A stretch of 64,000 bases of DNA, from the NCBI GenBank assembly GCA_963745835.1, contig CAVUZH010000018.1, positions 160,001 through 224,000 of the forward strand. Direction: 5' to 3'. The position numbers and the translations under genes are program-made. This DNA is from an uncultured delta proteobacterium (lineage in GTDB: Bacteria; Desulfobacterota; Binatia; UBA9968). Numbering within the stretch: position 1 is the first letter of the stretch; every line of letters begins with the position of its first letter. The notes under the pieces were generated by a model. It worked only from the letters and a program-made list of their open reading frames with translations, made no database searches and was not told the DNA's origin. Shown here piece after piece: positions 31,383 to 62,871 of this stretch.

Positions 31383-32589
31383 ATGTCAGTGCCGGAAACG
31401 CACGACAGCGAAAATCTGCCGACGGAAGTCATGGAACTGCAGATGGGTCCATCCCATCCGGCAACCCATGGCACGATCAAATTCAATCTCAAGCTGGAAG
31501 GTGAGAAGGTCCTCGACTGCGATGTCGAAGTCGGTTATCTCCATCGCGGGTTTGCCAAAAGCTGCGAGAACGTGACCTGGACTCAGGTGATTCCTTATAC
31601 GGACCGGCTGAACTATGCGTCGCCGTTAATCAACAATGTCGGTTATGCCCTGGCGGTAGAAAAGCTGATCGGCGTCGAGACGCCGCCGCGGTGTCAGTAT
31701 ATTCGCGTAATCGTCAGCGAGCTGTCGCGTATCTTCGATCATCTTACCTGCTGTGGCATGTGTTGCTCCGAGCTCGGCGCGATCACCGTCGGCTTCTACA
31801 TGATCGAAGCCCGCGAAATGATAACGCGAATAGTTGAGGCCCTCACCGGGGCCCGCTTAACAGTCACTTACGTCCGCGTTGGCGGGGTCAAGCACGACCT
31901 GCCGGCTGGATTTTGCCGAGGAAGGGTCGAGCGCACCTTTAAGATCATTCGCAGGCTGTTGGAGGATTGCGACGGACTCCTGTCGCGCAACCGTATCTTT
32001 ATCGATCGGATGTCCAATATAGGTGTGATTTCGCGGGAGACCGCCATCAGCTATAGCCTGACCGGTCCGATCTTGCGCGCCAGCGGCGTCAACTATGATG
32101 TCCGCAAAACCAATCCCGTATCTGGTTTACGATCAGCTCGATTTTATCGTGCCGCTGGGGACCAAAGGCGACAACTACGATCGCTTCGTCTGCCGCATTC
32201 AAGAAATCGAACAGAGCATGAAGATCGTCGAGCAGGCGCTGAAAAGTCTGCCCGTCGGCCCCGTGTGGATTGAAGATCCGCGCTTCGTGCTGCCGGAGAA
32301 AGAGAAGGTCTACAACAGCATCGAAGGTTTGATGCACCATTTTAAGATCATCATGGAAGGAATCAAGGTGCCGCCCGGAGAAACTTACTTTGCGGTGGAA
32401 GGCGGCAACGGTGAATTGGGCTTTTATCTGGTCAGCGACGGCGCCGGGACGGCCGTATCGCGTGCGAGTGCGCCCGCCCTGTTTCTCGCCATGGGCGCTT
32501 TTCATGAGATGATCAAGGGATACATGATAGCCGACATCGTGCCGACTTTCGGCATGGTCAATATGATCGGTGGGGAATGTGACCGGTAG
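31383..32589 (+). CDS. nuoD: NADH-quinone oxidoreductase subunit D (frameshift near 32118, probable sequencing error)
   Basis: MGPSHPATHG, GYLHRG, DRLNY, GELGFY, GECDR. Confidence 0.92.
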
Positions 32590-32629
32590 AGTCAAAGTAG
32601 AATCGTGTCATCGCGATCTTTCGCGGAAA

Positions 32630-32665
32630 ATGGTCAATATGATCGGTGGAGAATGCGACCGGTAG
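32630..32665 (+). repeat. 36-bp duplicate of the nuoD 3' end
   Basis: Matches 32554-32589 with two synonymous changes (GGG/GGA, TGT/TGC). Confidence 0.9.
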
Positions 32666-32817
32666 CAGCTGCTGAAAAAGACTCATATGCTTCGTTGCGC
32701 TCGTTCGCCTCGCTTCAACGTCTGAAGCGTACGCCTCAGCTCATCGAAGTTCGCGCGCCTCGCCTCTGAGATCTTTTTGAGCAGCCTGCTAGCAGACTTT
32801 TTCAGACAGCGCGTTAG
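32663..32817. mobile_element. Palindromic MITE/REP-like element, copy 2
   Basis: GCTGCTGAAAAAG...CTTTTTGAGCAGCC with a second outer TTTTTCAG end; similar to 16497-16610. Confidence 0.65.
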
Positions 32818-32846
32818 GAGTTGTTTTAATAGAGAAGAATAATCGA

Positions 32847-33324
32847 ATGGCAGTGGAATTTTCTCCGGAAACGCTCGAAAAATTTGAAGAGACGGTGAGC
32901 CGCTACCCAAAGAAAGAGGCGGCGATGCTTGCCAGTCTTGTATCTTGCTCAGCAAGAGTTCGGTTACCTGGGTGCCGAGGCGATTGACTACGTTGCCAGG
33001 CTGATGGGCCAATCGCCTGCCCGGGTGCACGGCGTGGTGAGCTTCTATACCATGTACAACATGAAGCCCATCGGCCGGCACCATATTCAGGTGTGCCGCA
33101 CGTTGTCGTGCGCATTAGGCGGCGCGGAGAAAATCACTGAGCTTCATCAAGACGAAAACTTGGCTATCGAACTCGGGCAGACGACTGCTGACGGGCGATT
33201 CACGTTATCGGAAGTGGAATGCCTGGCCTCGTGCGGAACCGCGCCGATGATGCAAATCAACGATGATTATTACGAAAACTTGAATGAAGAAAAGGTGGCC
33301 GAGATCCTCGATTCTTTGAAATAA
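32847..33324 (+). CDS. nuoE: NADH-quinone oxidoreductase subunit E (frameshift near 32930)
   Basis: MAVEFSPE...RYPKKEAAML joins PVLYLAQ; VCRTLSC, ECLASCGTAP. Confidence 0.92.
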
Positions 33325-33341
33325 TTTCATTCCTGAGAGCT

Positions 33342-34680
33342 ATGGAAAAAATTTTGCTTCGTAACATCGATGCCGCCGATTCGCACACCCTGGCGGCTTA
33401 CCAAGCGCGCGGCGGTTATCGCGCCTGGGAAAAGGTCGTCCGCAGCATGAAGCCGGAGCAGTTGATCGATGAAGTGAAGGCGTCAGGACTCAGAGGCCGG
33501 GGCGGTGCCGGATTTCCCACCGGTATGAAGTGGAGTTTCGTCCCCAAAGACAATCCCAAGCCCAAGTATCTGGTTTGTAACGCCGACGAAAGCGAACCCG
33601 GCACATTCAAGGATCGATTGCTGATCGAGAAAGATCCACACGCGATCATCGAGGGGACGCTGATCGCAGCGTTCGGAATTCAATCGCATACCGCCTTTAT
33701 TTACATCCGCGGCGAAATGGCATTTGGCACTCGGGTGCTGGAACAGGCGGCAGAAGAGGTCAAGCGCGCTGGCTTCATCGGCAAGAATATTTTCGGCTCG
33801 GGCTATGACGTGGATTTGATTGTTCATCGTGGCGCAGGCGCTTATATCTGTGGCGAAGAAACCGCTATGCTTTCGTCGCTCGAAGGCGGGCGCGGCTGGC
33901 CCAAGGTTAAACCGCCGTTCCCGGCAACCCATGGCCTGTTTGGCTGTCCGACCGTGGTCAATAACGTCGAGACCCTGGCGGCGCTGCCGTGGATCATCGA
34001 TCGGGGTGCGGCGGCTTATGCGGCGATGGGCACAGAGAAGAGCAAAGGCACGAAACTCTTTAGCGTCAGCGGGCACATCAGCAAGCCGGGCGTTTACGAA
34101 GTCGAGATGGGATATCCGTTCAAGAAGTTTCTCGAAGAGGATTGCGGCGGCGTGCCCAACGGTAGAAAACTCAAGGGGGTGATTCCCGGCGGCGGTTCGA
34201 TGCCGGTTTTGCGGCCGGAAGAAATCGAAAACGTGAATCTCGACTATGAGTCGGTTCAGGCGGCAGGCAGTTTGCTCGGCTCCGGCGGCGTCATCGTCAT
34301 GGACGACTCCACTTGCATGGTCCGCGCGGCGTGGAACATTGCGCGTTTTTTCGCGCATGAATCGTGCGGGCAATGCAGTCCCTGCCGCGAGGGTTGCCAC
34401 TGGATGGAGAAAATTTTCCATCGCATCGAGCAGGGAGATGGCGACAAAGAGCGATATGGATCTCATTCTCAACGTCAGCGGCAACATTATGGGTAATACG
34501 ATCTGTCCGTTTGGCGATGCCGCCGCCATGCCGGCCGCAGCCTTTATAAAAAAATATCGGGATGAATTTGAGCAGCACATTGTCGACAGAGGCTGCACCG
34601 TAAGAAACGTTCAAGGAAGCATTGGAAGTGTTAGTGTCAGCTCCAATGCTCCACCAAGCTTAAGGCGAAGTTTATCTTTT
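33342..34680 (+). CDS. nuoF: NADH-quinone oxidoreductase subunit F (frameshift near 34448; exact 3' end uncertain)
   Basis: GLRGRGGAGFP, NADESEPG, GAGAYICGEE, ESCGQCSPCREG, NTICPFGDA. Confidence 0.92.
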
Positions 34681-37407: not shown

Positions 37408-37411
37408 GGCT

Positions 37412-37906
37412 ATGAGTGGTTCACATATCATTTTTTTCATCGTTGCGGGTTTGCTGATCGTATCATCGGTGTTGGTGGTATTTCAGCGCAACGTGGTTCA
37501 TAGCGCGGTGGCGCTGGTGGCAGCGTTGTTCCTGATTGCTGTTTTGTTCCTGAGCCTGCACGCGCCGATGGTGGGCGTGTTGCAGATCCTGGTCTATGCC
37601 GGCGCCATCATGGTGCTCTTTCTCTTCGTAATAATGCTTTTGAATCCTGTCGGGCTGGAACAGCGCCGCAATCTTTGGTGGGTTGCCGGCAGCGTTTCAG
37701 GCTTGCTTCTGGTCGCGGCATTGGCTCCGATGCTGTTCAATCTCGAGCCCGCCCAGGATCCAATGGTCACCACCGAGCTTTTTGGCAGCCCGGAAGAACT
37801 GGCCAGGAGCCTCTTTACCGACTTTGTTCTTCCGTTTGAAATCGCCTCGGTCTTGCTGCTGGTGGCAATCATTGGCGCCGTGGTTCTGGCGAATAAGGAG
37901 CCGTAA
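37412..37906 (+). CDS. nuoJ: NADH-quinone oxidoreductase subunit J
   Basis: QILVYAGAIMVLFLFVIMLL, PFEIASVLLLVAIIGAV. Confidence 0.95.
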   Translation: MSGSHIIFFIVAGLLIVSSVLVVFQRNVVHSAVALVAALFLIAVLFLSLHAPMVGVLQILVYAGAIMVLFLFVIMLLNPVGLEQRRNLWWVAGSVSGLLLVAALAPMLFNLEPAQDPMVTTELFGSPEELARSLFTDFVLPFEIASVLLLVAIIGAVVLANKEP

Positions 37907-37912
37907 GCGTCC

Positions 37913-40134: not shown

Positions 40135-40136
40135 TT

Positions 40137-44288: not shown

Positions 44289-44496
44289 CTAGGCTTGCTG
44301 ATCATTCGCCTTCGGTTTCTTGCGTTTTGCTGCGACGGGACATCCTTAAAATATCGTCAGTAAAACGTCGAAATGGAATGTCACCGAGCAGGTACGGAAG
44401 AGTCTCTGATTGCAATTGCAGGGAATATTTCAAAGGGCCAGCACGATTTGCATCAGTTGAGCGGAAACTTGCAACAAGATACGCTAACGGGCTGGA

Positions 44497-45612
44497 ATGA
44501 ACGCCCTCCGATACTCTCTGATCATCTCCGTCTCAGCACATGCATTTCTCTTAATCTGGCTAACCTTCACAGTCCCTCCAAGGAACAACCGAGTTTCGCA
44601 CCTAGAGGTCGCGCTGATGTCGCCGCCGCCAAGCCTCTCAAAAAGCGAGGGCAGTTCCCCGGTGCAAACTCGACAGCTGGTCAACAGGAATCAACCTGCA
44701 GTCAGCAGACGGCCGCTTACCTCCCGTAACACGGGGGCACCGCCAGAAAGTCTCGAAAATTTAGCGCAGTCTGCTGAGCCTCTAGCTGTGGACGGCGGCA
44801 CCGCCCCATTCAGTGCGTCGGACGCCTCCGCCCTAGGTGATCAAGCGGGCGATATCGCTATAGGCTCTGGAAGCGCGGTTTCGGTGCCAGAAGACGGGAT
44901 CGCAGGCACAAAAGGAGCAACTTCGAGACGAGACGGATCATCCCGCGAGAGCGCCAGCGCACCAGCCGGATCATCCAGGAAAAGCTCCACGCCGTCGGAT
45001 ATCGACTCGGCTTCTGGCGCAGTGATCCCCGGCTACGTCATCGATGCTGCTGGTTATCGGCCTCCGGATGCTGGAGCCATATATCCAGAAGTCGATAAAT
45101 ACGTGCTCTACAGCGCTGACAAGCGGACCGCCATTAACGTACTTGGTACGGAAGTTTGTACTGAGGGCGAGTTTCTACGCAGCAAAGAAGCCGCGATGAT
45201 TTCCGAAATCAAAACCGACTATTCCAAATGCCGTTATCTGGATTTCGGAGATGAGTCAGTGTCAGTAACGTGCCCCCCCGAAGCACAGACCAAGATCATT
45301 CACCATAATTCGTATTTATCCTCGCCTCTCGTCTACAGTGTTCGTACTTGCCTCGAATACGACACGTCAAATTGTTACCTGACAACTGATCAGGAAACTG
45401 AACGAGAAATGTGCCGCATAGATTTCGAATATGAAGGTCTCTGGGGCGAAGGCACTAAATTCTTTTATCGATGTTCTAAGTCAGAATCGCGGAGCTATCG
45501 ACAGCCTCTGGAATACAACATTCGATGGTTTATGGAAGTCTATATAGAGGAGCGCGGTTTGAGGCGACGTGAAGTTCTTCGGGAAACCAGAGCGGTTCCT
45601 AGATGTGCGTAG
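44497..45612 (+). CDS. Membrane-anchored hypothetical protein (TonB-like anchor, S/A/P-rich linker, Cys-rich C-terminal domain)
   Basis: SVSAHAFLL TM anchor; low-complexity linker; 8 Cys in the C-terminal half. Confidence 0.7.
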   Translation: MNALRYSLIISVSAHAFLLIWLTFTVPPRNNRVSHLEVALMSPPPSLSKSEGSSPVQTRQLVNRNQPAVSRRPLTSRNTGAPPESLENLAQSAEPLAVDGGTAPFSASDASALGDQAGDIAIGSGSAVSVPEDGIAGTKGATSRRDGSSRESASAPAGSSRKSSTPSDIDSASGAVIPGYVIDAAGYRPPDAGAIYPEVDKYVLYSADKRTAINVLGTEVCTEGEFLRSKEAAMISEIKTDYSKCRYLDFGDESVSVTCPPEAQTKIIHHNSYLSSPLVYSVRTCLEYDTSNCYLTTDQETEREMCRIDFEYEGLWGEGTKFFYRCSKSESRSYRQPLEYNIRWFMEVYIEERGLRRREVLRETRAVPRCA

Positions 45613-45818
45613 GTCCCTAAGTAGAACGTTAATGAAAGGATTTATGATAAGCGCCAGAAGCAGGGTGCCATCGACCCAAATTAGGAACGATTGCGACCGT
45701 TGGCTAAATTCCAAACCCACAGCCACCTGCTTAAACATCAGTTTAGTGGGCAACAATTGTGCGCGGGCAGTTTGAGGAGGATTAGGATGTTGGCAGGGGT
45801 TAAAACCTTGGCTCTTCG

Positions 45819-48861: not shown

Positions 48862-49356
48862 GTGAATGAGCCAGTATCAAACCTGATGTCAGGCCGGCAA
48901 TATACGATTTCTATCAACCTGGCGCCAGAGCGTTTGCTCTACGCCGGTCCGCTCATCCCCGGCGCCTGGAGGCGTACGCGAGACGAAGAAGAGGTCGGCT
49001 CGGTAGGTGGAGAGATATTGATAGACACTGGCGCGTTCGGCGCGATGATCGATGATGATGTCGCCGATCATTTGCGCCTGCCGATACGCGGCACAAAGGA
49101 AATTCATGGAATTCACGGCTACGGCACAGTTCGCTGCTATCAAGCAAAACTTGTGCTTCCGGCACAGGATCCGATCGGAGAAGACTGTGAATTCACAACA
49201 ATTATTGAATGCATAGGCGTGCCTTCCTTGGCAGAGAAGAACCGAGAGCACGGCGTCAACGTTATCGGGATCATTGGCAGGCAGTTTTTGCAAAATGTCC
49301 ATCTGGAGATCGACGGCGCAACCGGCAGACTCAAGCTACTCATCAGTGATCGATAA
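48862..49356 (+). CDS. Retropepsin-like aspartic protease
   Basis: ILIDTGA catalytic motif and GIIGRQFL. Confidence 0.78.
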   Translation: MNEPVSNLMSGRQYTISINLAPERLLYAGPLIPGAWRRTRDEEEVGSVGGEILIDTGAFGAMIDDDVADHLRLPIRGTKEIHGIHGYGTVRCYQAKLVLPAQDPIGEDCEFTTIIECIGVPSLAEKNREHGVNVIGIIGRQFLQNVHLEIDGATGRLKLLISDR

Positions 49357-49369
49357 GTAGATAATCCAC

Positions 49370-50128
49370 ATGGCAGAACGACAACAAGACGAAGTTGAAA
49401 AGCTGATTGCGGATAAGCTGCGTGATGCCGGAATTAAATTTGTCACGCAGCAGGCGATCGCGGGATTGGCGCCGGATTTCATCGTTTATGCTCCCGATGG
49501 CCGGCAGTTTATTGTTGAAGCTAAAAACTGGGACTTTCCAGGACTTAAAGCCGAGGCAAGCCGGCAAGCACAGCATTACCAGGATGCGGCGAAATCTGAC
49601 GGCGCCTTCATCGTGATTCCCTCGTTGAAGCGAGGCTCGCCCGACAAGGGCGTAGTAACCGTCGACGGCCTGGTGCCGGCGCTCAAGGCAGAGTTCGAAA
49701 ACAGCAAGGCACGCACGCACCCTACCGAAGCAACCAAGGTCAGCCGGATCGTTTTTGCGGCGATGCCGTTTGCGCCTCAGTATGAGGATGTATTTTTTAT
49801 CGCTATGCGCCAGGCCGCCGAGCAGGTGAGAGCAGTGTGCGAACGAGTCGATCGGCGCGAATTTCAAGGCAGCGTCGTCGATGAAATTCAGCGGCTGATT
49901 CGTCAATCGGTAGCGGTGATTGTCGATCTTTCCGAGGCCAAGCCGAACGTCCTCTATGAAGCCGGCTATGCTCATGCATTGAACAAGCCGTGCATCCATA
50001 TCTGTTCAACCTCGACCGAAAAACTCCCTTTCGATGTCAGCCACTGGAAGACGACGATGTATCATCCGGGCCAGACGCACAAATTGGCCAAAGAGCTGGC
50101 GCAGCGGCTCAAGGCGGTGCTCGATTGA
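49370..50128 (+). CDS. PD-(D/E)XK nuclease-like domain fused to nucleoside 2-deoxyribosyltransferase-like domain
   Basis: PDFIV...IVEAK; VFAAMPF, IVDLS..KPNVLYEAGYAHALNKP, LPFDV. Confidence 0.75.
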   Translation: MAERQQDEVEKLIADKLRDAGIKFVTQQAIAGLAPDFIVYAPDGRQFIVEAKNWDFPGLKAEASRQAQHYQDAAKSDGAFIVIPSLKRGSPDKGVVTVDGLVPALKAEFENSKARTHPTEATKVSRIVFAAMPFAPQYEDVFFIAMRQAAEQVRAVCERVDRREFQGSVVDEIQRLIRQSVAVIVDLSEAKPNVLYEAGYAHALNKPCIHICSTSTEKLPFDVSHWKTTMYHPGQTHKLAKELAQRLKAVLD

Positions 50129-50183
50129 TTGGAACGTAATTAAGAAAACATGACGCAGTGACAATTGTGTTCATGGTGCGGCG

Positions 50184-50312
50184 GGCACGGCGGCACTTGT
50201 TTGCCAGGGAGACCTGGGGGCGAAGCTCAAGCGGCGAGATTATCCTGAAGAGGCGATCGGCAAAATCCTGCGCGGCAACTTACAACGGATCCTGCGTTAG
50301 GTATTGCCATAG
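50184..50312 (+). pseudogene. 3' remnant of a membrane dipeptidase (M19)-like gene, copy 1
   Basis: KLKRRDYPEEAIGKILRGNLQRILR*VLP*. Confidence 0.6.
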
Positions 50313-50522
50313 TGATTTGCTTATGCCCGATTATAGGAGTACCGATTTCGATTTACGAGACCGAACAACCAAAGGTACCGACCTGACGGTGACGCTTGCG
50401 CTCAGCACATCGCCGTAGTGACTCGCCCATTCGCTGCGCCTTCAATTCACGGGGCAATCAGTAAGCTTCGCGCATGATTGGCCGAATCTTGAACAGCCAC
50501 ACAGCACTGATGTGTTGAGTTT

Positions 50523-50553
50523 ATGACCTAAAAATGGTTATGATCTAGTCATG
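50523..50553. promoter_or_regulatory. Putative TA operator inverted repeats
   Basis: ATGACC-N7-GGTTAT and ATGATCTAGTCAT directly upstream of and over the antitoxin start. Confidence 0.4.
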
Positions 50554-50802
50554 AATATAGTTAATGTGGCCATCCTGAAAGAAAAGCTGAGTTACTACCT
50601 TAACTTGGTCAAGTCGGGCGAAGAAGTCGTTGTGACCTCTCACCGGCACCAGGTCGCGCGTATTCTCCCTGTGACCACTCCTTCGGCTGAAATCATAGAA
50701 CCTACTCGTCCGGTCAAAGACTTACGAAAAGTAAAAGGTGTCAAGCTTCGTCGAACGGTCTCCGGCGTGAAATCACTTGTGGACGACCGTCGGCGCCGAT
50801 GA
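50551..50802 (+). CDS. Phd/YefM family antitoxin
   Basis: VNVAILKEKLSYYLNLVKSGEEVVVT...VARILP. Confidence 0.9.
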   Translation: MNIVNVAILKEKLSYYLNLVKSGEEVVVTSHRHQVARILPVTTPSAEIIEPTRPVKDLRKVKGVKLRRTVSGVKSLVDDRRRR

Positions 50803-51218
50803 TTGTATATGTCGACACTTCCGTTGTCTTGCGCGTTCTCTTACACGAGTCAAACCCGGTCGGGATTTGGGGCCAATGGAACAAAGCCTATAGTAGTGCG
50901 TTGTGGCGTGTTGAGGCGTTGAGAACTGTGGACCGGCTCCGGTTAACTCACGAAATCTCCGATACCGAAGTCGCGGAGCTGGTGCGCGATATACAAATTA
51001 CCCATGAAACCTTCGCCATCCACCCCATCACGAACCAGGTTCTTCAGCGAGCAAGTGAAACCTTTCCGACGGTGGTTGGAACCTTGGACGCTATGCATCT
51101 CGCCACGGCGCTGTCGATACGCGAAGTCGAAAGCTTGGATTTATTGTTGACCCACGATTCTCAGCTCTCCACCGCCGCCAGAAGTCTCGGGTTCGAGGTT
51201 ATGGGAATCGATCAGTAA
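50799..51218 (+). CDS. vapC: VapC/PIN domain toxin
   Basis: YVDTSV, TLDAMHLATA, THD..L; ATGA overlap with antitoxin. Confidence 0.9.
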   Translation: MIVYVDTSVVLRVLLHESNPVGIWGQWNKAYSSALWRVEALRTVDRLRLTHEISDTEVAELVRDIQITHETFAIHPITNQVLQRASETFPTVVGTLDAMHLATALSIREVESLDLLLTHDSQLSTAARSLGFEVMGIDQ

Positions 51219-51264
51219 TAAGGAGAACAAAATCGCACCCAGCCCTGAGATCATATCAAATGGC

Positions 51265-51620
51265 ATCTTTCCCAGGCCAAGCCGAATGTCCTCTATGAAG
51301 CCGGCTATGCTCATGCATTGAACAAGCCATGCATCCATATCTGTTCAACCTCGACCGAGAAACTTCCTTTCGATGTCAGCCATTGGAAAACGACAATGTA
51401 TCATCTGGGGCAGACACACAACTTAGCCAAAGAGCTGGCGCAGCGGCTCAAGGCGGTGCTCGATTGATTTGGAACGTAGCTGAGAAACGCGATTGGAGCG
51501 ATGATTGTGTTTGCCGGCGCTCTGGCATCGGCGCCAACTTGCGCGCTGGAGAAAATCTGGCGGCGCAGCTCAAGCAAAGAAATTATCCTGAAGCAGCCAT
51601 CGGCCTAATCCTCGGTGGCA
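51265..51620 (+). repeat. Diverged direct repeat of 49926-50280 (3' end of nuclease-NDT gene plus dipeptidase remnant copy 2)
   Basis: Codon-by-codon alignment: 10 synonymous and 3 non-synonymous differences in the coding part. Confidence 0.92.
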
Positions 51621-51768
51621 CCCATTTGAAATTTAGCATTTGCACCAAGCCAACGTGCAAACCTGCAACGACTCCGCGCCACTGAAAGAAATTTTGCATT
51701 TTCTCAGATGTCCAGGTAAAAGAACCTCGGCACATTCTAGTAAACCAACCGTCCTACTGGAGGTAGCT

Positions 51769-53307
51769 ATGTTCTGGAGCATTCGTCTTGCTCTATTATC
51801 GATATTCGTGGTGCTGGCGATCGCGCACGCGCCCGGCCATGCGCAGTCGCCGGCCGCGCTGCTCCGGCAGTCGGCCAACGCCATGGGCGGGTTAGCAGCG
51901 CTGAGCGCGCTAAAGAGCGAGGTGATTGAAAGCGAAGGCAAACAGTTCGATTCTTCTTCGACGGCGCAGCCGCTCGGTCCGACCCGGCAGATCACCACGT
52001 TTCGCTACACCCTCACACGCGATCTCATCCGACCCCGATTGCGGCTTGTGTGGGAATGGCAAAGCCTGGGCAGCAAGCAAGCCGGCCGCTTCGTTGAAAC
52101 CATCGACGGCTCGATTGGAATGCTGCAGCAAGGAGGAGACGGCGCCAAGCAAACCCGCCTGCATCCCGGCCGTTTGGCAACCCGCCTGCGCGAGGAGCAC
52201 CGCAATCCCGCAAGACTCGTCCTGGCTGCCTTGAACAACAAGAGTTTGCGCAACCGCGGTGATGTCCAGCTCGACGGCAAACGCCATACGGTGTTGTCCT
52301 TTAGTGAAAAGGACGATGAGTTTCGCATCTACATCGATGCGCAAACGCGGCTGCCGGCACAAACCGAAATTCTCGAGGACGATCCGCTCGAAGGCGACAG
52401 CAGCTACACGCTACGGTACGGCGACTGGCGCAAAGTCGACCGCGTGATGCTGCCGTTTAGTTTGCGCTATGAGCTGAACGGTAAAGTGCTGCAGGAGGAG
52501 CAGATCAGATCGATTCGCCACAACCTGGCGCTCGGCGGCGACGTCTTTGCCATCCCCGAGTCCGTGCGGAATGAAAAAACCGACGCTACGCCGATTGCAT
52601 CCCAATGGATTCTGCGCCGTATCGCGGGCAACGTCAGTTATCAAGACATGGGCCGCGCGCCCGCGGTCCAGTGGGTGGAACTCGCGCCCGGCGTGCACAA
52701 GATTCAAGGTAGTTCCCATGCGACGATCTTAGTCGAGATGGGTGATCATCTGGTCGCCGTTGAGGGTCCGCTGTACGAAGCCCGCACGGCGCCGGTGGTC
52801 AAGTCGATAAAGGAGCGATTCCCCGGAAAGCCGATCCGCTATGCGATCCCGACCCACCACCATCTGGATCACGCCGGCGGGATTCGCGCGTTTATGGCGG
52901 AAGGCGCGGCGATAGTCGTACCCTTCAACGCCCGGGCATTCTATGAGAAAGTCGCGCGTGCGCCGCACACGCGCAATCCTGACAGTCTGGAGCGCAGCAA
53001 ACGACCCGTGGTCATCGAAGCGTTCGGCGGCGGCCACAGAGTTCTCACCGATGGCGCGCGTCGGGTCGAGGTTCATCCGCTTCCGACCTCCCACGCGACA
53101 GACCTGGTCGTGGTATATCTGCCCAGGGAAAAATTGCTTATCGAAGCCGACCACATCAGCCCGCGAAACGGCGAGGTGCCGCCGGGCCCTCGGGTCAAGG
53201 AATTTGTCCAAGAGCTCGACAAGCTCAATCTCGATGTCGCGACGATCGTTGGCATCCATGGCGACCAGGCGAGTCTGGAGACCACCCGAACAGCAGCCAA
53301 GAAGTAG
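51769..53307 (+). CDS. Secreted metallo-beta-lactamase-fold hydrolase with N-terminal beta-rich domain
   Basis: THHHLDHAGG, HATD, EAD, GIHG; GGAGG RBS before ATG 51769; signal peptide. Confidence 0.87.
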   Translation: MFWSIRLALLSIFVVLAIAHAPGHAQSPAALLRQSANAMGGLAALSALKSEVIESEGKQFDSSSTAQPLGPTRQITTFRYTLTRDLIRPRLRLVWEWQSLGSKQAGRFVETIDGSIGMLQQGGDGAKQTRLHPGRLATRLREEHRNPARLVLAALNNKSLRNRGDVQLDGKRHTVLSFSEKDDEFRIYIDAQTRLPAQTEILEDDPLEGDSSYTLRYGDWRKVDRVMLPFSLRYELNGKVLQEEQIRSIRHNLALGGDVFAIPESVRNEKTDATPIASQWILRRIAGNVSYQDMGRAPAVQWVELAPGVHKIQGSSHATILVEMGDHLVAVEGPLYEARTAPVVKSIKERFPGKPIRYAIPTHHHLDHAGGIRAFMAEGAAIVVPFNARAFYEKVARAPHTRNPDSLERSKRPVVIEAFGGGHRVLTDGARRVEVHPLPTSHATDLVVVYLPREKLLIEADHISPRNGEVPPGPRVKEFVQELDKLNLDVATIVGIHGDQASLETTRTAAKK

Positions 53308-53399
53308 GTGCGCCATCGCAGCCTAGGCGGGCAGGAAGAGAAGGGGTCGAGTCCGTTACCGGATACGGCATATCAGTCGGTCTATAACTGCGGCTGGCC

Positions 53400-53746
53400 A
53401 AAAGCAGTTTAGGCAACGTATTACTAATAGCGCACACGATCAGGAGCAGAGACGATGAAGAAGTCACGCGGATCATCAGTGCGCGGTGCGAGCCGGAAAG
53501 AACGAAAAGTATGAAACCGAAGAAAGTTGACTTCTCGGATATTCCCGAGCTTTCCGACGAGCAACGTTCTTCTATGCGTCGGGTGGGTAGACCGACCGTG
53601 GGGCGACGAGCCGAGAAAACTGATCGCGATCCGATTGAACGCGAAGGTATTGGGTTGGCTACGTAAGACAGCCAAGAAAAAAAGGACTGCGGTATCAGTC
53701 GTTAGTCAACGAGATCCTTGCCCGCGAGATGCGGAAGGCGAGTTAG
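53400..53746 (+). pseudogene. Degraded BrnT/BrnA-like toxin-antitoxin pair
   Basis: ...IAHT...TRIISAR.ASRKER, then MKPKKVDFSDIPELSDE...IAIRL...YQSLVNEIL across frames; toxin 5' part missing. Confidence 0.7.
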
Positions 53747-53885
53747 CGACTGGAATAGATCCAACATTCATGTCGCGAAAGATGGCCGGTCCTGGGTGTG
53801 GGGGCGAATATAATAGTGACCGCCGGTATCTAACGACATCAAGAGCGGAATGTGTCACTGCAAAGCTAGCGGTTCGATGTCAATC

Positions 53886-54016
53886 GGCATCGGTGCCAAC
53901 TTGCTCGCTGCAGAAAATCGGAGGCGGAGCTCAAGCAAAGACATTATCCTGAATAGGCCATCAGCAAAATTCTCGGCGGCAATTTACTGCGGGTCCTGCG
54001 CCAGGTCCTCCCATGA
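53886..54016 (+). pseudogene. 3' remnant of membrane dipeptidase-like gene, copy 3
   Basis: ELKQRHYPE*AISKILGGNLLRVLRQVLP*. Confidence 0.65.
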
Positions 54017-54298
54017 TCATTTGTTCCTGCCTGATGATCGAGAGTAATGATCCAGACCTACGCGCACGTCAACTGGCGATATGGATCGATGCGGCCGCTC
54101 CGCTTCGGGCGCCGGGACGAGCCTCGAAATCGGTTTTGTCTTCCGGTTGACTGCCATCACTTCGGTCAACTTTGCTGTCGCCTCAGTGCCTATGACCCGG
54201 AAGAATAGTCGATACGAAAGCCATCCGCTAAGCCGCCGCCCCGTCTTCACCGAAGATTTGAATCCGCCACGCCTGGACCGTTTTCGTTTAGGCCCGAT

Positions 54299-55310: not shown

Positions 55311-55445
55311 TGAAACCAGTCTACATCGAAACAGTGCGATTTAGAAAGTTGCTGTTGGAATCGGGGACGCTGGAGTTGAGACCAAGGTTCATCACCGGAA
55401 TTTAACAGGTAGCCGGCTGAAGAGAATCTCGTAAAAGGCTCAGTT

Positions 55446-55950
55446 ATGGTGAGGCCGCTCCGGCTAGAATTTGCCTGGTGCCATCTATCAGCTGACAAGC
55501 GCGGCAACGCACGCCAGAAAGTGTTTTCAGCGATGACGATCAAGAGCTGTTTCTGAATACTTCATCTAGGGTCGTCAAAAGGCTATGGTTATATCTGCTG
55601 ATTGAGACACCGAAGGCCAATCTCTCAATCGGCATGCGCCAGCTCAGCCGAATCTATAAGCAAAGCTTTTAATCGCCGGCACAACAGGGTCGGGCATTTG
55701 TATCAAGATCGATTGAAGGCGATTCTGGTGGAAAGGGAATCCCACCTCCTGGAGCTGTGCCGCTTATATCGTGCTCATCCGCTACGGGTTAAAAGCAGTG
55801 TCAGGTCACAGACCTGGAAGTGGAGCAGTTACCGGGCAACAGTTGGACTGGCTGCAGTGCCAGAGTTTCTAAGCACCGATTGATAGTCGCGCAATTCCGC
55901 AAGAAACACGACTCAAGCGCAGAAGCAGTACCGGGAATTGTCAGGGTATC
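55446..55950 (+). pseudogene. Degraded REP-associated/IS200-like HUH tyrosine transposase
   Basis: MVRPLRLEF, RGNARQ, LLIETP.ANLS.GM, FNRRHNRVGHLYQDR.KA, WKWSSYRA with stops and deletions. Confidence 0.8.
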
Positions 55951-56002
55951 TTCGTGAGAAGGATTGGAGCTTGGCTTTGAATGGCGTCGTGCACACGATA
56001 TC

Positions 56003-56902: not shown

Positions 56903-56930
56903 TTTTTACCTTAAAGGACAGTGCCCAGCG

Positions 56931-57115
56931 ACAGTGGGTCACGTCTTGCAACGACACATTTGCAGCTCTCCAGACGCTCGCCGATCACCCAACTTTCTTG
57001 CTCGCGCTGACCGAATGCAATTCACTCAAATTTCGGTTTCTCTTTTAGATAATACTTCGAGAGCAGCGGTCGGTAACGCTCCATGAGTTCCTTATTGAGA
57101 TATGTCGGCGGCTTT
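56931..57115 (-). repeat. Diverged direct repeat of 61245-61440 (3' end of amidohydrolase and its downstream region)
   Basis: Encodes KPPTYLNKELMERYRPLLSKYYLKEKPKFE* identically, with three synonymous base changes. Confidence 0.93.
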
Positions 57116-57188
57116 GGCCTGGGATCACTTCCGCCATACGTGCCAAGGTATGCGGTGGATACCTCATGCCTCGAAGCGGCGTTCCCAA

Positions 57189-57809
57189 TTATTTTTTCGG
57201 AAACAGATTTTGCGCGGCGAGCGCTTTCGTGATCGTTTGCACATAGGACCTTATAGCCGCTTGCACGTTTGTCGGCTCCTTCGTTTTGAGGGTGCCGGTC
57301 CATACCAATTCGTTCTTGGCGACATCATAGAGCGCAGTCTCCGAGGTGTATTCGTTGTAACGGTAAGGGCCGGATGTCCCGGGAATTCCAGACCAAGCAG
57401 CGCCGGCATTTGAGCCGAAGATCCCGAACGAAATTTCCGGTCCTACTGTAGGGTAGTTGGTCTTCTCTTCCACCTTGACTGATCGCATAAAGAGCAAGCC
57501 GTCGGCCCGGGCTTTTTGCGCGGCCTGTTTGAGGTTGTTTTCATTCGTCTCATCATTCTCCGGCATGTACCGATAGCTCGGCGATGCGTTGACGCCCACT
57601 GCCGCTAGTTGAGTCACGAACTCGTCTTCGAAATTGCGCCGCACGCTGACATCCCCGCTTGGACCTCCAATCATCAGTCGCTGCAAGGAGCCCGAAGTCT
57701 GCGCGGGATTACGCCATTCACTGACGATTGGGGTAGCGGTCGAACAACCGTTGAGAGTGAGGGTGATGAAAAGAATTTCCACAATGCCTAAGAGCAACGT
57801 CTGCTTCAT
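57189..57809 (-). CDS. Lipoprotein of unknown function
   Basis: Lipobox LNGC; RRNFEDEF, ETALYDV...LVWTG. Confidence 0.78.
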   Translation of the reverse strand: MKQTLLLGIVEILFITLTLNGCSTATPIVSEWRNPAQTSGSLQRLMIGGPSGDVSVRRNFEDEFVTQLAAVGVNASPSYRYMPENDETNENNLKQAAQKARADGLLFMRSVKVEEKTNYPTVGPEISFGIFGSNAGAAWSGIPGTSGPYRYNEYTSETALYDVAKNELVWTGTLKTKEPTNVQAAIRSYVQTITKALAAQNLFPKK

Positions 57810-57935
57810 GGCCGGATGTTCGCACTAAATCAACAGTCGTTACAAGACTCTCCTTAAAAAGGTCCGGTTGCGGAAATTCACCAAGCACACGCGAAGATCA
57901 AGCACCGGTTCTTTGAGGTAGCGAACAAGCGCAAA

Positions 57936-58163
57936 ATGGCCACGATCTTTCACGAGGAGGTCTGGGCCAGCAAAGGAAGCCTAACGGCATGCGGACATAA
58001 GTACTATGAAATGGGCCGGCGGGCCCGCGGATCTATGCCAAAAATCGTTAGCGGCGTGCATTCTAAGGACCTAGCGTGGCGCACGCAATTAAATTTGACC
58101 TGGCCACTAATCTTAGAAACCGCAGCAGAGATTGCGCCGGAACTATTGAAGAAGGGCCGATAA
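57936..58163 (+). pseudogene. C-terminal remnant of an ABC substrate-binding protein
   Basis: KGSLTACG..YYEMGRRA...SGVHSKDL...ETAAEI.PELLKK resembles the ABC_sub_bind C-terminus, with frameshifts. Confidence 0.5.
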
Positions 58164-58369
58164 GGTTATTCGATAGCTAATTGAATACGTCTCAGCCGGT
58201 GTTCTACGCTGTTCTACGTTCCCGCGCTTTCGGGCTGAGCTAGTGCAGCGTGCAGCATTACTGCATCCGACTGTTGCCTTCGCTTGATCGATGATGACTC
58301 GTTCGATCCTTTCTACGAAATCTGATGAGACTGGTTTATAGATAGTTGCAAAAATAACGTCAGCACCAA

Positions 58370-59440
58370 TTACGGCATGCTAACGTACCCTTCATTAACC
58401 AGATAATTTTTAATTGCCTCGGCGACAGCAAGATGACCTGCAGGTTCCCAATGCCCGCTCGATCTGAAAGCTTCTCCTTTTGCTCTTCTTTCAGCAAAGT
58501 GGGGTCTCGTAGAAAAACATCTGGCTTTTTCATTTAGCCGGCACAAGGTGAGCATGTACGCCTCACCTCGGGTCACGGCGACGTCCATGGCGATTTCTCT
58601 TGCTCGCGGGAGATATGCCAGTATTGGAATTGCATGGACGCTGTCGACTAACTTTATCATCGCGGTCAATATGGCGCTCGTAATGTCCTCCATTTCTTTC
58701 TCTCGAAGCCCTAATAAGCTTTTTACTCTGTAGTGTATTAATGAAGATATATCGGCAATCCTCGGTCTGCTCCAATCCCGTTGGAGGATGTCCTGGGGAC
58801 GTGGAACCGGCGTGCCTGTCAACTTAAGCTCACCTCCCTTTAGGACAAAGCGAGGTTTCGCAAAGTCTCTGAATTCGAGTAGATTTCTAGACATATCTAG
58901 CGGCAGAAAACCTAAGATAACGATATCCGGCTGGTATCTGACTCCTTCTTCTCGAAGAAGAATCAACATCTGATCATGGCCGTAGCCGTGTACGCCCATG
59001 TTGATGATTTCTGTATGCGGCAGCATTTGTTGAAGATAGTAACAATATGTTTCGTCATCGCTCACTTCATCACCGAAAGTAAACGAATCTCCGAGTACCA
59101 ATATTCGTTGTTTGTTTTTGGTATAGGGGAAGTTCTTCTTGCCTCTAAGACCTTTAGAATTCGTGTTTAAAATCTTATTGTCGAATACTCTTACGTCTTT
59201 GAGATCGGGCTTGGGTCGCCATCCTTTGGAAGGATCATAGATGTCAAATGTGTAGTAGGCTTCCGTACTAGAATATTGATGTCTCTGAACCCAATTGCGA
59301 CGGTGCGTATAATCCTCATTTGCCTGGAGACGTTGAGCAACTTGAGGTATTGAAAAAGCCAGCCTAGCAAAGCCCTCAAATAAGAAGGCTAAGAAACCGA
59401 CATATCCAAGAACCAAAAAAAATTTCCGCGTCCTGCTCAT
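58370..59440 (-). CDS. SGNH/GDSL hydrolase family membrane-anchored protein
   Basis: NSKGLRG, ILVLGDSFTFG, INMGVHGYG, GHWEPAGH. Confidence 0.87.
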   Translation of the reverse strand: MSRTRKFFLVLGYVGFLAFLFEGFARLAFSIPQVAQRLQANEDYTHRRNWVQRHQYSSTEAYYTFDIYDPSKGWRPKPDLKDVRVFDNKILNTNSKGLRGKKNFPYTKNKQRILVLGDSFTFGDEVSDDETYCYYLQQMLPHTEIINMGVHGYGHDQMLILLREEGVRYQPDIVILGFLPLDMSRNLLEFRDFAKPRFVLKGGELKLTGTPVPRPQDILQRDWSRPRIADISSLIHYRVKSLLGLREKEMEDITSAILTAMIKLVDSVHAIPILAYLPRAREIAMDVAVTRGEAYMLTLCRLNEKARCFSTRPHFAERRAKGEAFRSSGHWEPAGHLAVAEAIKNYLVNEGYVSMP

Positions 59441-59602
59441 TTTGCATCAATTGGTTGCTGGTCCGGAACCTTCACCTTAGATCACCATCAAAACTCCACC
59501 GAGCCCGAATGGGAGCGCGAATGCTTTTTTGACGCCGGGCGGATGCGTGCAGCCTCTTTAGGTTCACGCGATTTTTCGAGTGGCGCAGGCTGGTGGCCGT
59601 TA

Positions 59603-60500
59603 CTACAACATTGCCCTCCAGACTCGATAGAAACGGTATTTCAGAAAAAATGGTCGAAGAATAATCGCTTCCCTTATCGCTTCCAGAGCTCTGTTCCTTT
59701 CACCAATTTTCCAGCGCCATTTCGCGAGTCTATAAAAACGGTGGGCCTTGCGCCTGTTGATATGGTGGCGACCGAGAATTTTGATGGACTCGGGGAACTC
59801 CTGAACTAGTTTGTCGATAACCTTTAGGTTCTCTAATTGTCTAAGCTCCTCGTTACCCCCGATGCTTCCTTGATGCCGGCGATAAAAAAACACTACCTTA
59901 TCCAGATAAGCAACCGGGAAGCGAATGAAAACCCTAAAAGCCAAATCCAAATCCATGGCGATTCGTAATGTCTCATCGAGTCCGCCAATGGTCAAAAGAA
60001 CCTGCCTGGAAAGAAGCGTTGCCTGCAGACGAAGGATACTCACGTCGAAAAGATCCACCAGCTTCACTCCGTCTTGGGCCAGCCGCTTAGATTTCTCCAA
60101 GGGAATGATAGTCTTTGTTTTTGGACCTCCAACATAACCGCCATTGGCGAAAACCATGCCGAGTTCATTGCTTTTTTTCACAATGCCGTAGAGACTTTCC
60201 AGATGATTTCGCCGCACAGATATCGTCGGAATCCTGAATAGAGATCCAATTCGCGCGAGCATTCTGGATGCCGACATTTCTTGCCGCAGAGGGGCCGCGG
60301 TTCTCCTGACGGATATAGCGCAGAATATGACCATATGACTTCACCAGCGCTTCGGTCTCATCGGTTGAACCGTCGTCCACCACGATAATCTCGAAATCGC
60401 GAAATGTCTGCGTCACGATGCTATCGAGCGTTTCTCTTAGCAAACTTGCTCGATTGTACGTCGCTATAACTACTGAGATGAGTGGGGTTCTAATAGGCAT
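59603..60500 (-). CDS. Glycosyltransferase family 2 (frameshift near 60210)
   Basis: ISVVIATYN, VVDDGSTD, GPSAARN, QDSDD, GGLDE, MDLDL. Confidence 0.87.
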
Positions 60501-60994
60501 CGAAGATAGTAATTTTCTCAACCGATTCTTCTACCCTCTGTTCTGAGTAGCGAAGATTCGGTCTTGTGCTCTGGGGTATGGCAGGCGCTCCCATGGAAAA
60601 CCAGCGGCGCGATCGGCCCAATGCTTTTAGAAGCTTACCACTCGGTGGCATAACAAAAACAGGAGTGACAAGAACGAGGATCACCGGGATCTCTGCACCT
60701 TCTCTTCGTCTAATTCGCTCTCGATATCGGTGCAAGTGACTGCAGCTGACGACCTCGCTTTCGTATCTTCTCGTTGGAATTTCGCTCGGCCCCTCTCTTG
60801 TGGGCATGATCCAATTAGAGCCTTCCAACTGCCTGACTCTTGGAAATAGCAACTGAAGTCCCGGTAGTCATTTCGCTTTATGGGACTGAAGGTCCATTAC
60901 CGCCTTCAGACGAAGCAATACAAGCCGGTGGATAGACGATTCACTCACCCGTGTGAGGATGGGGAGAGAATGTCTGGTCGGAAGCGAGCCCGCT

Positions 60995-61246
60995 CGGCAA
61001 TTCGAATTTGTGGATCCGAAAGTGGAGATGCCGGCTCTTTTGCCTTTCAAGTGCAAGGGCTGCTTAATCTCCGCGGCGCGCCATCAAATGAAACGGCGAT
61101 ACGTTGCCGCTTGCTGCGATGATAACCACTTCGCTGCCGGCGGCGGTTGCTGCAATTGCCGCTATAGCGCCGGGAATAATCGGCGCGCTACCTGCCAACA
61201 TGGCGGCCACCATCCGCGTGCTGCCACCGATGCGAACCAATTCCAC
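60995..61246 (-). pseudogene. Internal fragment of an NMT1-like ABC substrate-binding protein
   Basis: ELVRIGGSTRMVAAMLAG...VVIIAA, then LKGKRAGISTFGS in another frame. Confidence 0.6.
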
Positions 61247-61346
61247 AGTGGGTCACGACGGTGGGTCAGCTTGCAATGACACATTTGCAACTTTCCAGGC
61301 GCGCGCCTATCGCCCAACTTTCTTGCTCGTTCTGGTCGAATGCAAT

Positions 61347-62871
61347 TCACTCGAATTTCGGTTTCTCTTTTAGATAATACTTAGAGAGCAGCGGTCGGTA
61401 ACGCTCCATGAGTTCCTTATTGAGATAAGTCGGCGGCTTTTGATCCGGCGGTAGAAACGACTTGTACTGAAATCCAGCCGTCTCCTTCTTGAACGTAGTC
61501 TTTGCCTCTTCTACCAGCTTCGGATCCGTCAGGAAATCGACGACGGAGGCGGCGAGGACTTTGGCGCCGGCCACGGCTCCCTTGTGCGCGATCGAAGTGG
61601 CGGGGGCTACTCCGGCGGCCCAGTGGTGATTGGGAATATTCGGGATGTTGCTGGGAAAAGTCACTCGGCCCGTCGGCACGATCCACGTCACCTCTCCGGC
61701 ATCGTTAGACGAGGCGCCCTGGCGCGATTCGCGCAGCGGCGAGATCTCTTTGTGCAGCCCCTCTTCCTTGCTCTTGAGGTTGCGCTGGAGCGCTTTGGCT
61801 AGGTTATGTTCCTCCTCGGTCCATTTGGGCATGCCGACCAAATCCACGTTTTTCTGGGTCACTTCCGCCATGGTCCGATTGCCGCGCGTTGGCCAGATCG
61901 CGCTGAACACCTGAACGCTGTATTCCGTATCCGTCATGGTCGCCGCGCCCTGCGCGACTTTCTTGGCCTTCTCGAAATTTATCTGCGCCTTATCGATGCT
62001 GGACTCCCGGAAGAACCACCAGATCTTCGCCAGGCCGGGGATGACGTTGGGCTGATCGCCGCCGTAGTTGATCACGCGATGGCTTCGGTGCGTCGGCTCC
62101 AGGTGTTCGCGCAGTTTGTCGAAGCCCATGCTCATCAGCTCCACCGCATCGAGGGCGTCGCGGCCCTGCCACGGCGCTGAGGCGGAGTGAGCGCTCTGAC
62201 CCTTGAAAGTAAACTCCGCGGAGATCAAAGCATACTGGCGGAGGCCGTATTCCGTTCTGAGCTCTTCGCCGATGTGGGTGTGAAAGGCGACGTCGACGTC
62301 TTTGAAAAATCCGTCGCGCACGAAGTAGGGCCGCGGAAGCAAAAGCTCTTCGGCCGGCGCGCCGAAGACTTTGAGCGTGCCCGGCAGCTTGTATTCGTCC
62401 ATAGCCTTTTTCACGGCGAAAGCCGCGCCGACCATCACCGCCGCGTTGACGTTGTGGCCTTCGGCGTGTCCGGGAGCGCCCTCGACGAGCGGCTTATGCT
62501 CCGGCACTCCGGGCGTCTGGGAATTTCCCGGCGTGGTGTCGTATTCGGTGTGAATCGCGATTACCGGATGACCGGAGCCGTAGGTCGCCATGAACGCAGT
62601 GGGCATGCCTGAAATCCCCCGTTGCACCTTGAAGCCGGCATCCTCGAGAATCTGCGTCATCAGCTTCGCGGTCTCGAACTCCTGCATGCCGAGCTCGGCG
62701 AAGTAGTAGATGTTGTCGCCTAACAGGGCGATGGCCTTGCTGTTGCGCTCCACGACTTTGAAGATGAATTCCTTTTCCTTACTTGGAGTGGGTTTCTCCG
62801 CCGTGTCGGGCGGCGGATGCCAGAAGCAGCAAGGCGGCGAATGAGAATACAAGTGACTTTTTCAAGTACAT
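61347..62871 (-). CDS. M20 amidohydrolase (AbgB-like), secreted; frameshift after signal peptide
   Basis: FAELGMQE, EYD, GHAEGHN, GAPAEE, GQSAHS, GRDALDA, SNDAG; MYLKKSLVFSFAALLLLA from ATG 62871 in adjacent frame. Confidence 0.9.

Follow-up and report, generated by a model that had tools for sequence, protein, structure and literature searches.

Orphan 3′ ends of ordinary genes in an uncultured Binatia genome: probable scars of homologous recombination between diverged alleles

How does a bacterial gene come to be followed, behind unrelated cargo or a short spacer, by a second copy of its own 3′ end? The question is raised by a stretch of 64,000 nucleotides (nt) of an uncultured delta proteobacterium (GTDB lineage Bacteria; Desulfobacterota; Binatia; UBA9968), positions 160,001 to 224,000 of contig CAVUZH010000018.1 in assembly GCA_963745835.1. 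This whole stretch is called the window below; it corresponds to C18:160001-224000 of the source genome, G000, which measures 7.28 Mb in 25 contigs. The window contains duplicated tails of three genes: nuoD, a gene with a nuclease-like part and a nucleoside deoxyribosyltransferase (NDT)-like part, named gene X here, and a gene for an M20 amidohydrolase. At each locus one tail copy ends the intact gene, and the other copy, the orphan, lies further downstream. The comparisons involve related genomes (G001-G010), metagenome or genome stretches (L-numbers) and public runs with assembled contigs (X1, X5 and X8). Our preferred answer, held with moderate confidence, is that these orphans are scars left where alleles that had diverged in related soil lineages underwent homologous recombination, at islets that vary between strains.

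Duplicated gene tails with an allelic signature

A repeat search and a self-BLAST of the window gave the same repeat pairs. At all three loci the order is intact gene, cargo or spacer, and then an orphan that has kept its stop codon (Table 1), as had been described from the sequence alone. The nuoD tails match over 36 nt and 11 codons, with two mismatches that are both synonymous. The X tails (49926-50128 and 51265-51467) span 66 codons without an indel and differ at 13 positions, of which 10 are synonymous and three non-synonymous; taken as 49926-50130 and 51265-51469 they are 94% identical, and a weaker similarity extends to 50277/51620 (83% over 361 columns). The M20 pair (61256-61440 and 56929-57115) is 90% identical, with three synonymous and no non-synonymous differences in 30 codons and 12 mismatches in the 91 columns of its non-coding part. 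The tail pairs themselves are 94-97% identical and encode almost the same peptide, and a chance match is excluded for all three repeats. Counting codon by codon reproduced exactly the synonymous and non-synonymous differences that had originally been reported for the three tails.

The three loci together comprise 69.6 synonymous and 251.4 non-synonymous sites, and of their 18 differences 15 are synonymous; this has a P of 4.5e-8 under neutrality and of ~2e-5 if one copy had decayed neutrally and selection had continued on the other. For X, the synonymous divergence (dS) is 0.23 and the non-synonymous divergence (dN) 0.019 (dN/dS ~0.09), and behind the stop codon 34 of the 144 non-coding columns are mismatched (0.24), in addition to gaps. 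The dS of M20, 0.155, compares with 12/91 (0.13) in the non-coding part. Because the non-coding divergence is close to dS, coding and non-coding DNA appear to have diverged for the same time, with purifying selection on both coding copies. Among strains, the X orphans of G000, L034, L035 and L039 also differ from each other mostly by synonymous changes, at synonymous to non-synonymous ratios from 8:2 to 16:5 (16:5 for G000_B and L034_B, 15:4 for G000_B and L035_B). The sequence-only reading had argued that the copies are functional alleles of different lineages. These results support that inference, which we consider sound: the two members of each pair are alleles that spent most of the time since they separated as functional sequences in different lineages.

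No recombinase gene was found in the window. PF00589 (Phage_integrase) has no match there, the nearest one on the contig being ~160 kb away, and a Pfam scan of 60 window open reading frames (ORFs) contained no integrase or transposase (serine recombinases were not searched for in six frames). ARAGORN detected no tRNA or tmRNA gene in the window, and Rfam gave no match. As to an integron, the window has no tyrosine recombinase, and the repeats between the cargos are gene tails and a remnant of a dipeptidase gene, which do not look like attC hairpins (no dedicated attC model was used). The earlier description of the locus as integrase-free and devoid of a tRNA attachment (att) site is thus borne out for the window by PF00589, the Pfam scan, ARAGORN and Rfam, with the addition that a degraded Y1 transposase gene is present. 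The cargo in the window consists largely of toxin-antitoxin modules.

The orphans could also be what is left of integrative elements that insert site-specifically into the 3′ ends of protein genes and bring a new tail to replace the old one, with the integrase lost or provided in trans; the cis-mobilisable elements left by integrative conjugative elements offer an analogy. The order gene, cargo, orphan is indeed the classic attL/attR picture. We nevertheless regard this explanation as unlikely: neither an integrase nor a tRNA or tmRNA occurs in the window, the repeats differ along their whole length and show no obvious identical core with arms, and the X repeat runs ~150 nt past the stop codon into a neutrally evolving pseudogene remnant common to both copies. 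The unit duplicated at X consists of the X tail, a linker of ~20 nt and a remnant of a dipeptidase gene (R1 in one copy, R2 in the other). Since such an extension amounts to allelic homology and not to an att core, it favours homologous recombination.

Table 1. Positions of the duplicated tails, their cargos and adjacent features in the window
Feature	Position	Strand	Basis
nuoD tail in use, last 11 codons and stop	32554-32589	+	repeat and codon comparison
Spacer between nuoD tails, 40 nt	32590-32629	+	alignment of relatives
Orphan nuoD tail with stop codon	32630-32665	+	repeat and codon comparison
REP/MITE-like repeat, ~140 nt, inverted ends	32663-32805	+	directly behind nuoD orphan
Gene X, REase-like N-terminal and NDT/TIR-like C-terminal part; duplicated tail 49926-50128	49370-50128	+	weak family matches
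R1, decayed M19 dipeptidase 3′ remnant and native downstream DNA	~50157-50341	+	
Cargo: Phd/YefM-like antitoxin (50551-50802) and PIN toxin (50799-51218)	50551-51218	+	Pfam
Spacer, PIN stop to orphan X tail	51222-51264	+	class-1 junction
Orphan X tail with stop codon	51265-51467	+	repeat
R2, dipeptidase remnant, 3′ side cut short by next gene	~51482-51620	+	
Metallo-beta-lactamase (MBL)-fold hydrolase, 555 aa, between R2 and R3	51640-53307	+	
Degraded, frameshifted BrnT/BrnA-like toxin-antitoxin pair	53389-53750	+	~77% DNA matches in relatives
R3, dipeptidase remnant to stop codon and native downstream DNA	~53883-54046	+	
Degraded Y1 transposase gene (HUH; IS200/IS605 or RAYT type)	~55434-55940	+	tblastx
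Orphan M20 tail (57022-57115) and ~90 nt downstream DNA	56929-57115	-	repeat
Cargo, 4.1 kb: DUF4136 protein, GDSL-like hydrolase, frameshifted GT2 glycosyltransferase, small ORFs	57116-61255	-	Pfam
Tail and downstream DNA of intact M20 gene	61256-61440	-	alignment
M20 amidohydrolase, intact	61347-62852	-	Pfam M20; TIGR01891 190.7 bits

Filled, empty and variant forms in other strains

DNA of the window was detected in soil and rhizosphere metagenomes from nine studies, and a search with the M20 peptidase found its closest relatives in soil metagenome-assembled genomes, mostly of Candidatus Binatia. Looking for empty sites in related DNA, as had been suggested from the sequence alone, was successful at two loci: the nuoD insertion is absent from five relatives and X is without cargo in three runs. 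At M20 the relatives provided none.

At nuoD, one tail copy together with the spacer forms a 76-nt insertion, which is present in G000, G001 and G004 and absent from G002, G003, G007, G008 and G010; in G005 the orphan lies at the start of a contig. Its occurrence in G000, G001, G004 and G005 indicates that the duplication is old and inherited. The tail in use has GGG where the orphan, G002 and G007 share GGA, from which we infer that the orphan looks native and the tail in use looks like the newer, incoming copy. Judged by its sequence, the orphan decays in other species: that of G004 carries the changes M>R and G>R, and that of G005 has lost its stop codon.

For the X locus, 80 metagenome loci were retrieved with the PIN toxin as query. 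One of them, L034, has a length of 3427 nt and matches window 49071-52496 colinearly at 94.8% identity, from X and R1 through the toxin-antitoxin pair and the orphan to R2 and the next gene. The cargo-to-orphan junction of the window (51264/51265, class 1) is found in the long contigs of G000 and in L034, L036, L038 and L039; in the last three, the PIN stop codon is followed by 46 nt and then by X from 49926. L035 and L037 have another junction, in which ~50 other nt separate the PIN stop codon from X, starting at ~49725. From the X tail through R1 to the toxin-antitoxin pair, X1 record 3 (50087-51083) and X8 record 25 (50101-50654) are identical to the window. Contigs from three runs in three studies show the empty site: they join 50094 to 51489 with 31 other letters in between, and contain X, the linker, R2 and the MBL-fold gene without the cargo. 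Their X is a third allele with 13-15 differences.

These contigs bear on a trivial explanation, namely that two strains were chained into one contig by the assembler. The bin is 97.1% complete with 9.33% contamination, its 7.28 Mb exceed the 3.9-5.5 Mb of the genus, single-base indels occur in nuoD and nuoE, and several alleles co-occur in the same samples. Against this, L034 is an independent contig with the whole X structure, four further contigs have the same junction, the nuoD duplication recurs in three other assemblies (G001, G004 and, with the orphan at a contig start, G005), and the short-read contigs from other studies match the window exactly from the X tail through R1 into the cargo. 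An assembly artefact is therefore very improbable.

We then compared G000 and L034 by the number of mismatches per 100 nt. Upstream of ~49890, X differs at ~8 per 100 nt (1-13 per 100-nt bin). The block from ~49892 to 51270, which comprises the new tail, R1, the toxin-antitoxin pair and the spacer, differs at only 0-5 per 100 nt, or ~1.7% overall (~23 differences in 1,379 nt). The orphan and R2 differ at 8-26 per 100 nt (~17%), and the next gene at 2-6. Given ~1.7% versus ~8% and ~17%, the insert shares a much more recent ancestor than its flanks. Horizontal spread of the insert would account for this, as would an old insert that later had its flanks exchanged by allelic recombination. The right boundary of the shared block coincides with the edge of homology to empty-site DNA and is therefore expected either way. 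X upstream of the block is a fine mosaic, and one pair of strains proves little about the point of exchange. The limits of the shared block lie near those of the insert, which would also suit an integrative element.

Other strains carry longer arrays at this site. L037 and L038 are 99.3% identical from X to a few bases past the PIN stop codon, and wholly different from there on. In L038, a decayed orphan comes first; behind it lie a second addiction module, then 52 nt from the PIN tail, and finally the spacer with a second orphan. The second module (L038:3218-3781, L036:571-825) has a TIGR02574 antitoxin and a toxin without family match; in L036 it sits between the X tail and R1, and a different gene lies behind R2. 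Going by these sequences, the X locus is an accretion hotspot. The tandem units of L038 share the same right end (PIN tail, spacer, X tail), which is a point in favour of integrative elements, whereas the existence of two junctions for the same cargo is a point against them.

The orphans differ in age. L036_B has two synonymous and 11 non-synonymous changes that are unique to it, plus indels, L038_B1 contains a 27-nt insertion, and the orphans of L036 and L038 generally show many non-synonymous changes and indels. In the X orphan of G000, the changes seen in no other sequence are four synonymous and two non-synonymous ones, which suggests that it has been a pseudogene for a short time only. 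Some orphans thus appear to derive recently from functional alleles, and others appear old. The persisting synonymous bias in several orphans could alternatively mean that the tails are under selection as small proteins, RNA or regulatory elements, and a 93-codon ORF (57022-57303) does end with the M20 orphan. However, the orphans of L035/L037, L036, L038 and L039 contain indels, those at nuoD in G004 and G005 have suffered damaging changes or lost the stop, and no start codon gives an ORF of at least 60 codons in the X frame of the orphan. We consider selection on the orphans extremely improbable.

At the M20 locus, the side between the cargo and the intact tail is spanned by X1 record 5 (60222-61397, three differences) and X5 record 14 (60944-61307, no difference). 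Two joints of X5 contigs near this locus, 60702>61278 and 56854>62024, have a depth of 3-4 and are too weak to interpret.

Recombination as the probable source of the orphan tails

How, then, might the orphans have been formed? We infer the following course of recombination. Incoming DNA would bring a gene tail, the DNA downstream of that tail and the cargo to a strain-variable insertion point, and would be joined to the chromosome through the homology of the tail, either by a Campbell-type single crossover of a circle carrying tail and cargo, or by one homologous crossover combined with an illegitimate join. The gene would retain a working end, and the other tail copy would be displaced behind the cargo. 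The orphan and its downstream DNA would stay homologous to the intact locus of strains without the insertion, and later recombination could overwrite the orphan with a functional allele, making it look fresh until its final decay; such overwriting may be why several orphans look fresh. The single crossover of a small circle is plausible, and one-ended recombination with an illegitimate join, or later overwriting of the orphan, fits as well. As in Campbell-type integration, direct repeats flank the insert and are homologous over their whole length including non-coding DNA (linker and remnant at X, ~90 nt at M20). The junctions at 51264/51265 and ~57116 share at most 1-2 nt with the intact copy.

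A genome-wide check for orphan 3′ fragments, likewise proposed from the sequence alone, was run on G000. Among repeat pairs no more than 30 kb apart, 1337 are direct and 55 inverted, many of the direct ones being paralogue arrays. With filters of at least 80% identity, 30-700 nt and at most three copies, and with crude ORF-based gene calls, the survey yielded 21 orphan tails (16 downstream and five upstream of the intact gene), six heads and no internal fragments; the nuoD and M20 pairs of the window fall outside these filters. The expected bias towards tails is thus present, and the 21 tails together have 147 synonymous and 108 non-synonymous differences (dN/dS ~0.22). Selection for intact genes would explain that internal fragments are lacking, and the need to keep promoters is probably why heads are rarer than tails. 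The Pfam search of 78 of the 134 ORFs in the fetched stretches (10 of 14, with L116, L121, L126 and L127 left out) found no integrase or transposase, and the cargo includes a HEPN/nucleotidyltransferase pair and a HigB-like toxin. At C3:1161151/1174115, an exact 44-nt repeat (100% identity) adjoins integrase fragments (C3:1160476-1160865 and 1161381-1161536). This case is an ordinary integrative element and lends the integrative-element explanation some support.

Several observations weigh against recombination through tail homology as the source of the orphans, or limit what can be drawn from the data. Two junction classes for the same cargo mean that the history is more complex than one event. 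The left boundary of the block shared by G000 and L034 lies within ~35 nt of the repeat edge; a plain single crossover would place the exchange anywhere in the 203-nt tail, and the boundary looks more like a fixed site. The empty-site contigs carry a third allele and are therefore not the product of this strain, and junction 51264/51265 was not seen among the short-read pieces listed, which does not count as evidence that it is absent. The orphan-side junctions at M20 are without independent confirmation, and relatives show neither the empty site nor either downstream arrangement. In assembled public contigs no circle, excision product or hybrid tail was observed (the junction of a circle would equal the chromosomal one and could not be told from it). 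In the survey, the assembly has many single-base indels and the gene calls are crude, at least one row (one locus) was counted on both strands, one row lacks a conserved stop codon, and five of the 21 orphan tails lie upstream of the intact gene, which the model does not produce. Finally, the same toxin-antitoxin module (~50512-51222) lies in unrelated flanks at 74 of the 80 metagenome loci, 68 of these 74 being free of flanking direct repeats, so this cargo also moves without tail duplication. We accordingly rejected the tail duplication as a signature of the module: those 74 loci share the module only.

The first step could instead have been one old, local duplication, with the synonymous pattern arising later through allelic replacement of the intact gene or the orphan. 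The nuoD duplication is common to four species and hence old. An orphan of a DAHP-synthase gene is shared, with its cargo, by G006 (it was not found in G002, G003, G005, G007 and G008). The left edge of the orphan is the natural end of homology for empty-site DNA, which explains the sharp right-hand boundary in the comparison with L034, and derived changes are common to R2 and R3, which a duplication in place would lead one to expect. The nuoD and X spacers may be decayed upstream parts of longer orphans (the similarity is weak and its significance was not tested); that of X is possibly a heavily deleted remnant of the X upstream sequence. A local duplication leaves unexplained, however, how cargo was placed between the copies with the gene intact, and R1 and R2 are 63% identical to each other and each ~79% to the intact dipeptidase gene, which fits two lineages better than a local copy. 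We give this alternative a low probability; it overlaps largely with recombination between alleles and differs from it in the first step only.

A further possibility, somewhat less improbable in our view and still doubtful, is that tail and cargo together form a mobile cassette: recombination between the two tails would release a circle, which would re-enter related strains by a single crossover at the same gene, without the need for a recombinase. At no stage would the gene be interrupted, and strains that lost the insert would pay for it where the cargo is a toxin-antitoxin module. The idea is based on the ~98% identity of the insert between two strains, against differences of 8-17% in their flanks, on the tandem units with the same right end (in one contig), and on the empty sites. 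If true, it would mean an integrase-free, homology-guided gain of genes that recurs across the genome.

Recombination between alleles as proposed here has precedents. In E. coli, 56 of 60 clones had taken up a circle carrying a gene end by single crossover and bore duplications of 109-950 bp, such integration being far more frequent than one-ended events (PMC3240628). For the orphan arrays at type VI secretion system (T6SS) and Rhs loci, a study has proposed one-ended recombination by which 3′ ends are shifted downstream (PMC5361080). In view of these two sources, the suggestion of the sequence-only reading that the pattern might be an undescribed route of gene acquisition is not supported. 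What we describe is a known mechanism documented in a new lineage, and not clear evidence for a new kind of mobile element.

The differences from these and other systems are nevertheless informative. In Campbell-type insertion-duplication, direct repeats likewise flank the insert, and the gene is restored if its end is part of the segment; there the inserts are laboratory plasmids, whereas here the events would be natural and recurrent and the donor would be chromosomal DNA of related strains. With homology-facilitated illegitimate recombination and C-terminal displacement, our loci would share a single upstream anchor and an old 3′ part shifted downstream, besides the lack of an integrase (PMC5361080). 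The displaced ends at T6SS/Rhs loci encode different toxins accompanied by immunity genes, and their displacement is considered adaptive (PMC5361080); here, by contrast, nearly the same peptide is encoded, the genes are ordinary ones such as nuoD or the amidohydrolase gene, and no relation exists between gene and cargo. Genomic islands that carry an integrase and sit at 3′ ends of tRNA or protein genes, as well as derivatives of such islands that lack it, also show gene, island and orphan in this order, tandem accretion and a replacement tail, but the window lacks an integrase and a tRNA, and its repeats are long, diverged and extend into shared non-coding DNA. The H47 island of E. coli is small and integrase-free and excises between short direct repeats by a RecA-independent process of unknown nature (PMC5426353). 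With the inserts studied here it has in common the flanking direct repeats and the lack of a recombinase of its own, and it is mobile nevertheless; it differs in its short repeats and in the RecA-independent process. A literature search of partial coverage found no description of integrase-free cargo flanked by allelic 3′ tails of ordinary genes.

What is new here is the recurrence of the pattern in one uncultured soil genome, its clear allelic signature, and the natural filled, empty and variant alleles. Accessory genes of uncultured soil bacteria mostly lie in small islets without visible mobile-element genes, and their route of arrival is mostly inferred. Orphan tails that look like alleles provide a datable and countable footprint of gene gain driven by recombination, because they reveal which side was joined by homology, that the donor was a related lineage and that the target gene stayed whole. 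Should many genomes turn out to show the pattern, it could serve to gauge the frequency with which cargo such as toxin-antitoxin modules is installed by homologous recombination and not by dedicated recombinases.

Dipeptidase remnants, neighbouring genes and other repeats

Three remnants of a dipeptidase 3′ end had been taken to fit the same tail pattern, which turned out differently. An M19-type dipeptidase gene is intact in relatives (352 aa in G002 and 344 aa in G007; in G003 the ORF runs off the contig end), and R2 is 84.6-87.5% identical to the genes of G007, G002 and G003 (87.5% to G003). By tblastn, G000 has no intact orthologue, only R1-R3 and a paralogue of 25% identity. The remnants contain frame breaks and an internal stop, and their differences are mostly non-synonymous, with synonymous to non-synonymous ratios of 10:23 for R2-R3 and 21:31 for R1-R2. 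R1-R3 are decaying pseudogene pieces, and R1 and R2 belong to the duplicated X unit. R2 and R3 flank a second cargo, formed by the MBL-fold hydrolase and a degraded toxin-antitoxin pair; the event behind it did not regenerate the gene, since the first copy, R2, is without the gene's end. Self-BLAST also returned three copies of a fourth sequence, near 50216, 51559 and 53920.

The MBL-fold hydrolase stays far under all beta-lactamase cut-offs (44.8 against 200 bits) and is not called a resistance gene. The degraded pair at 53389-53750, which we take from its sequences to be BrnT/BrnA-like, as no tool gave these names, is intact in relatives (it is readable in L009) and has broken frames in the window. 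An RNA gene (tmRNA or other) was considered for the conserved stretch 53389-53749 and rejected: ARAGORN and Rfam gave no match, and the stretch is the degraded toxin-antitoxin pair. Gene X matches Nuc_deoxyrib_tr (E 1.8e-5) and pPIWI_RE_REase (E 1.4e-3) in Pfam, both under the cut-off, and a TIR effector in PADLOC (E 2.4e-6); sited among toxin-antitoxin modules, it may be a defence effector.

The repeat behind the nuoD orphan, which resembles repetitive extragenic palindromic (REP) sequences or miniature inverted-repeat transposable elements (MITEs), matches window 16497-16610 and more than 150 places across G000 and its relatives, and lies directly behind the nuoD stop codon in G002, G007 and G010. 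The Y1 transposase gene may be related to such REP-like repeats; a connection to the tail repeats was not found. Its tblastx matches, at 45-85% amino-acid identity, are C2:19002-19553 and C13:581220-581600 (intact, PF01797). For the idea of a REP-associated tyrosine transposase (RAYT) at 55602-55883, Pfam, NCBIfam and a six-frame PF01797 search gave no match in the window, the homology being detected by tblastx only.

Single-base indels at 32117, 32449, 32481, 32931, 33140 and 33158-33159 break nuoD and nuoE into two frames each. They are probably consensus errors of long-read assembly, and because G001 and G004 agree against G000 at these positions, many split ORFs are probably of the same origin. 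RtcB (16844-17143 / 17168-18295) and the GT2 gene (60165-60521 / 59603-60334) are likewise split.

Elsewhere in the window, 18409-21370 and 21406-23372 form a tandem paralogue pair (a glyoxalase-fold gene and an FAD-binding oxidoreductase gene, 71-75% identity), an old duplication of the ordinary kind that does not resemble the tail repeats. Positions 44308 and 45818 are directly joined in a contig of one run (depth 5.8, the shorter side 36 letters); the 1.5-kb segment therefore missing in some strain, 44309-45817, holds a 371-codon ORF without a known family. In the rest of G000, C13:11300-46000 contains ~20 repeats of 38-61 nt with 86-97% identity over 35 kb, and C13:681041-696041 holds five copies of a ~740-nt element, two of which match PF01797 (681352-681687 and 691002-691337), with a weak third match at 695616-695792.

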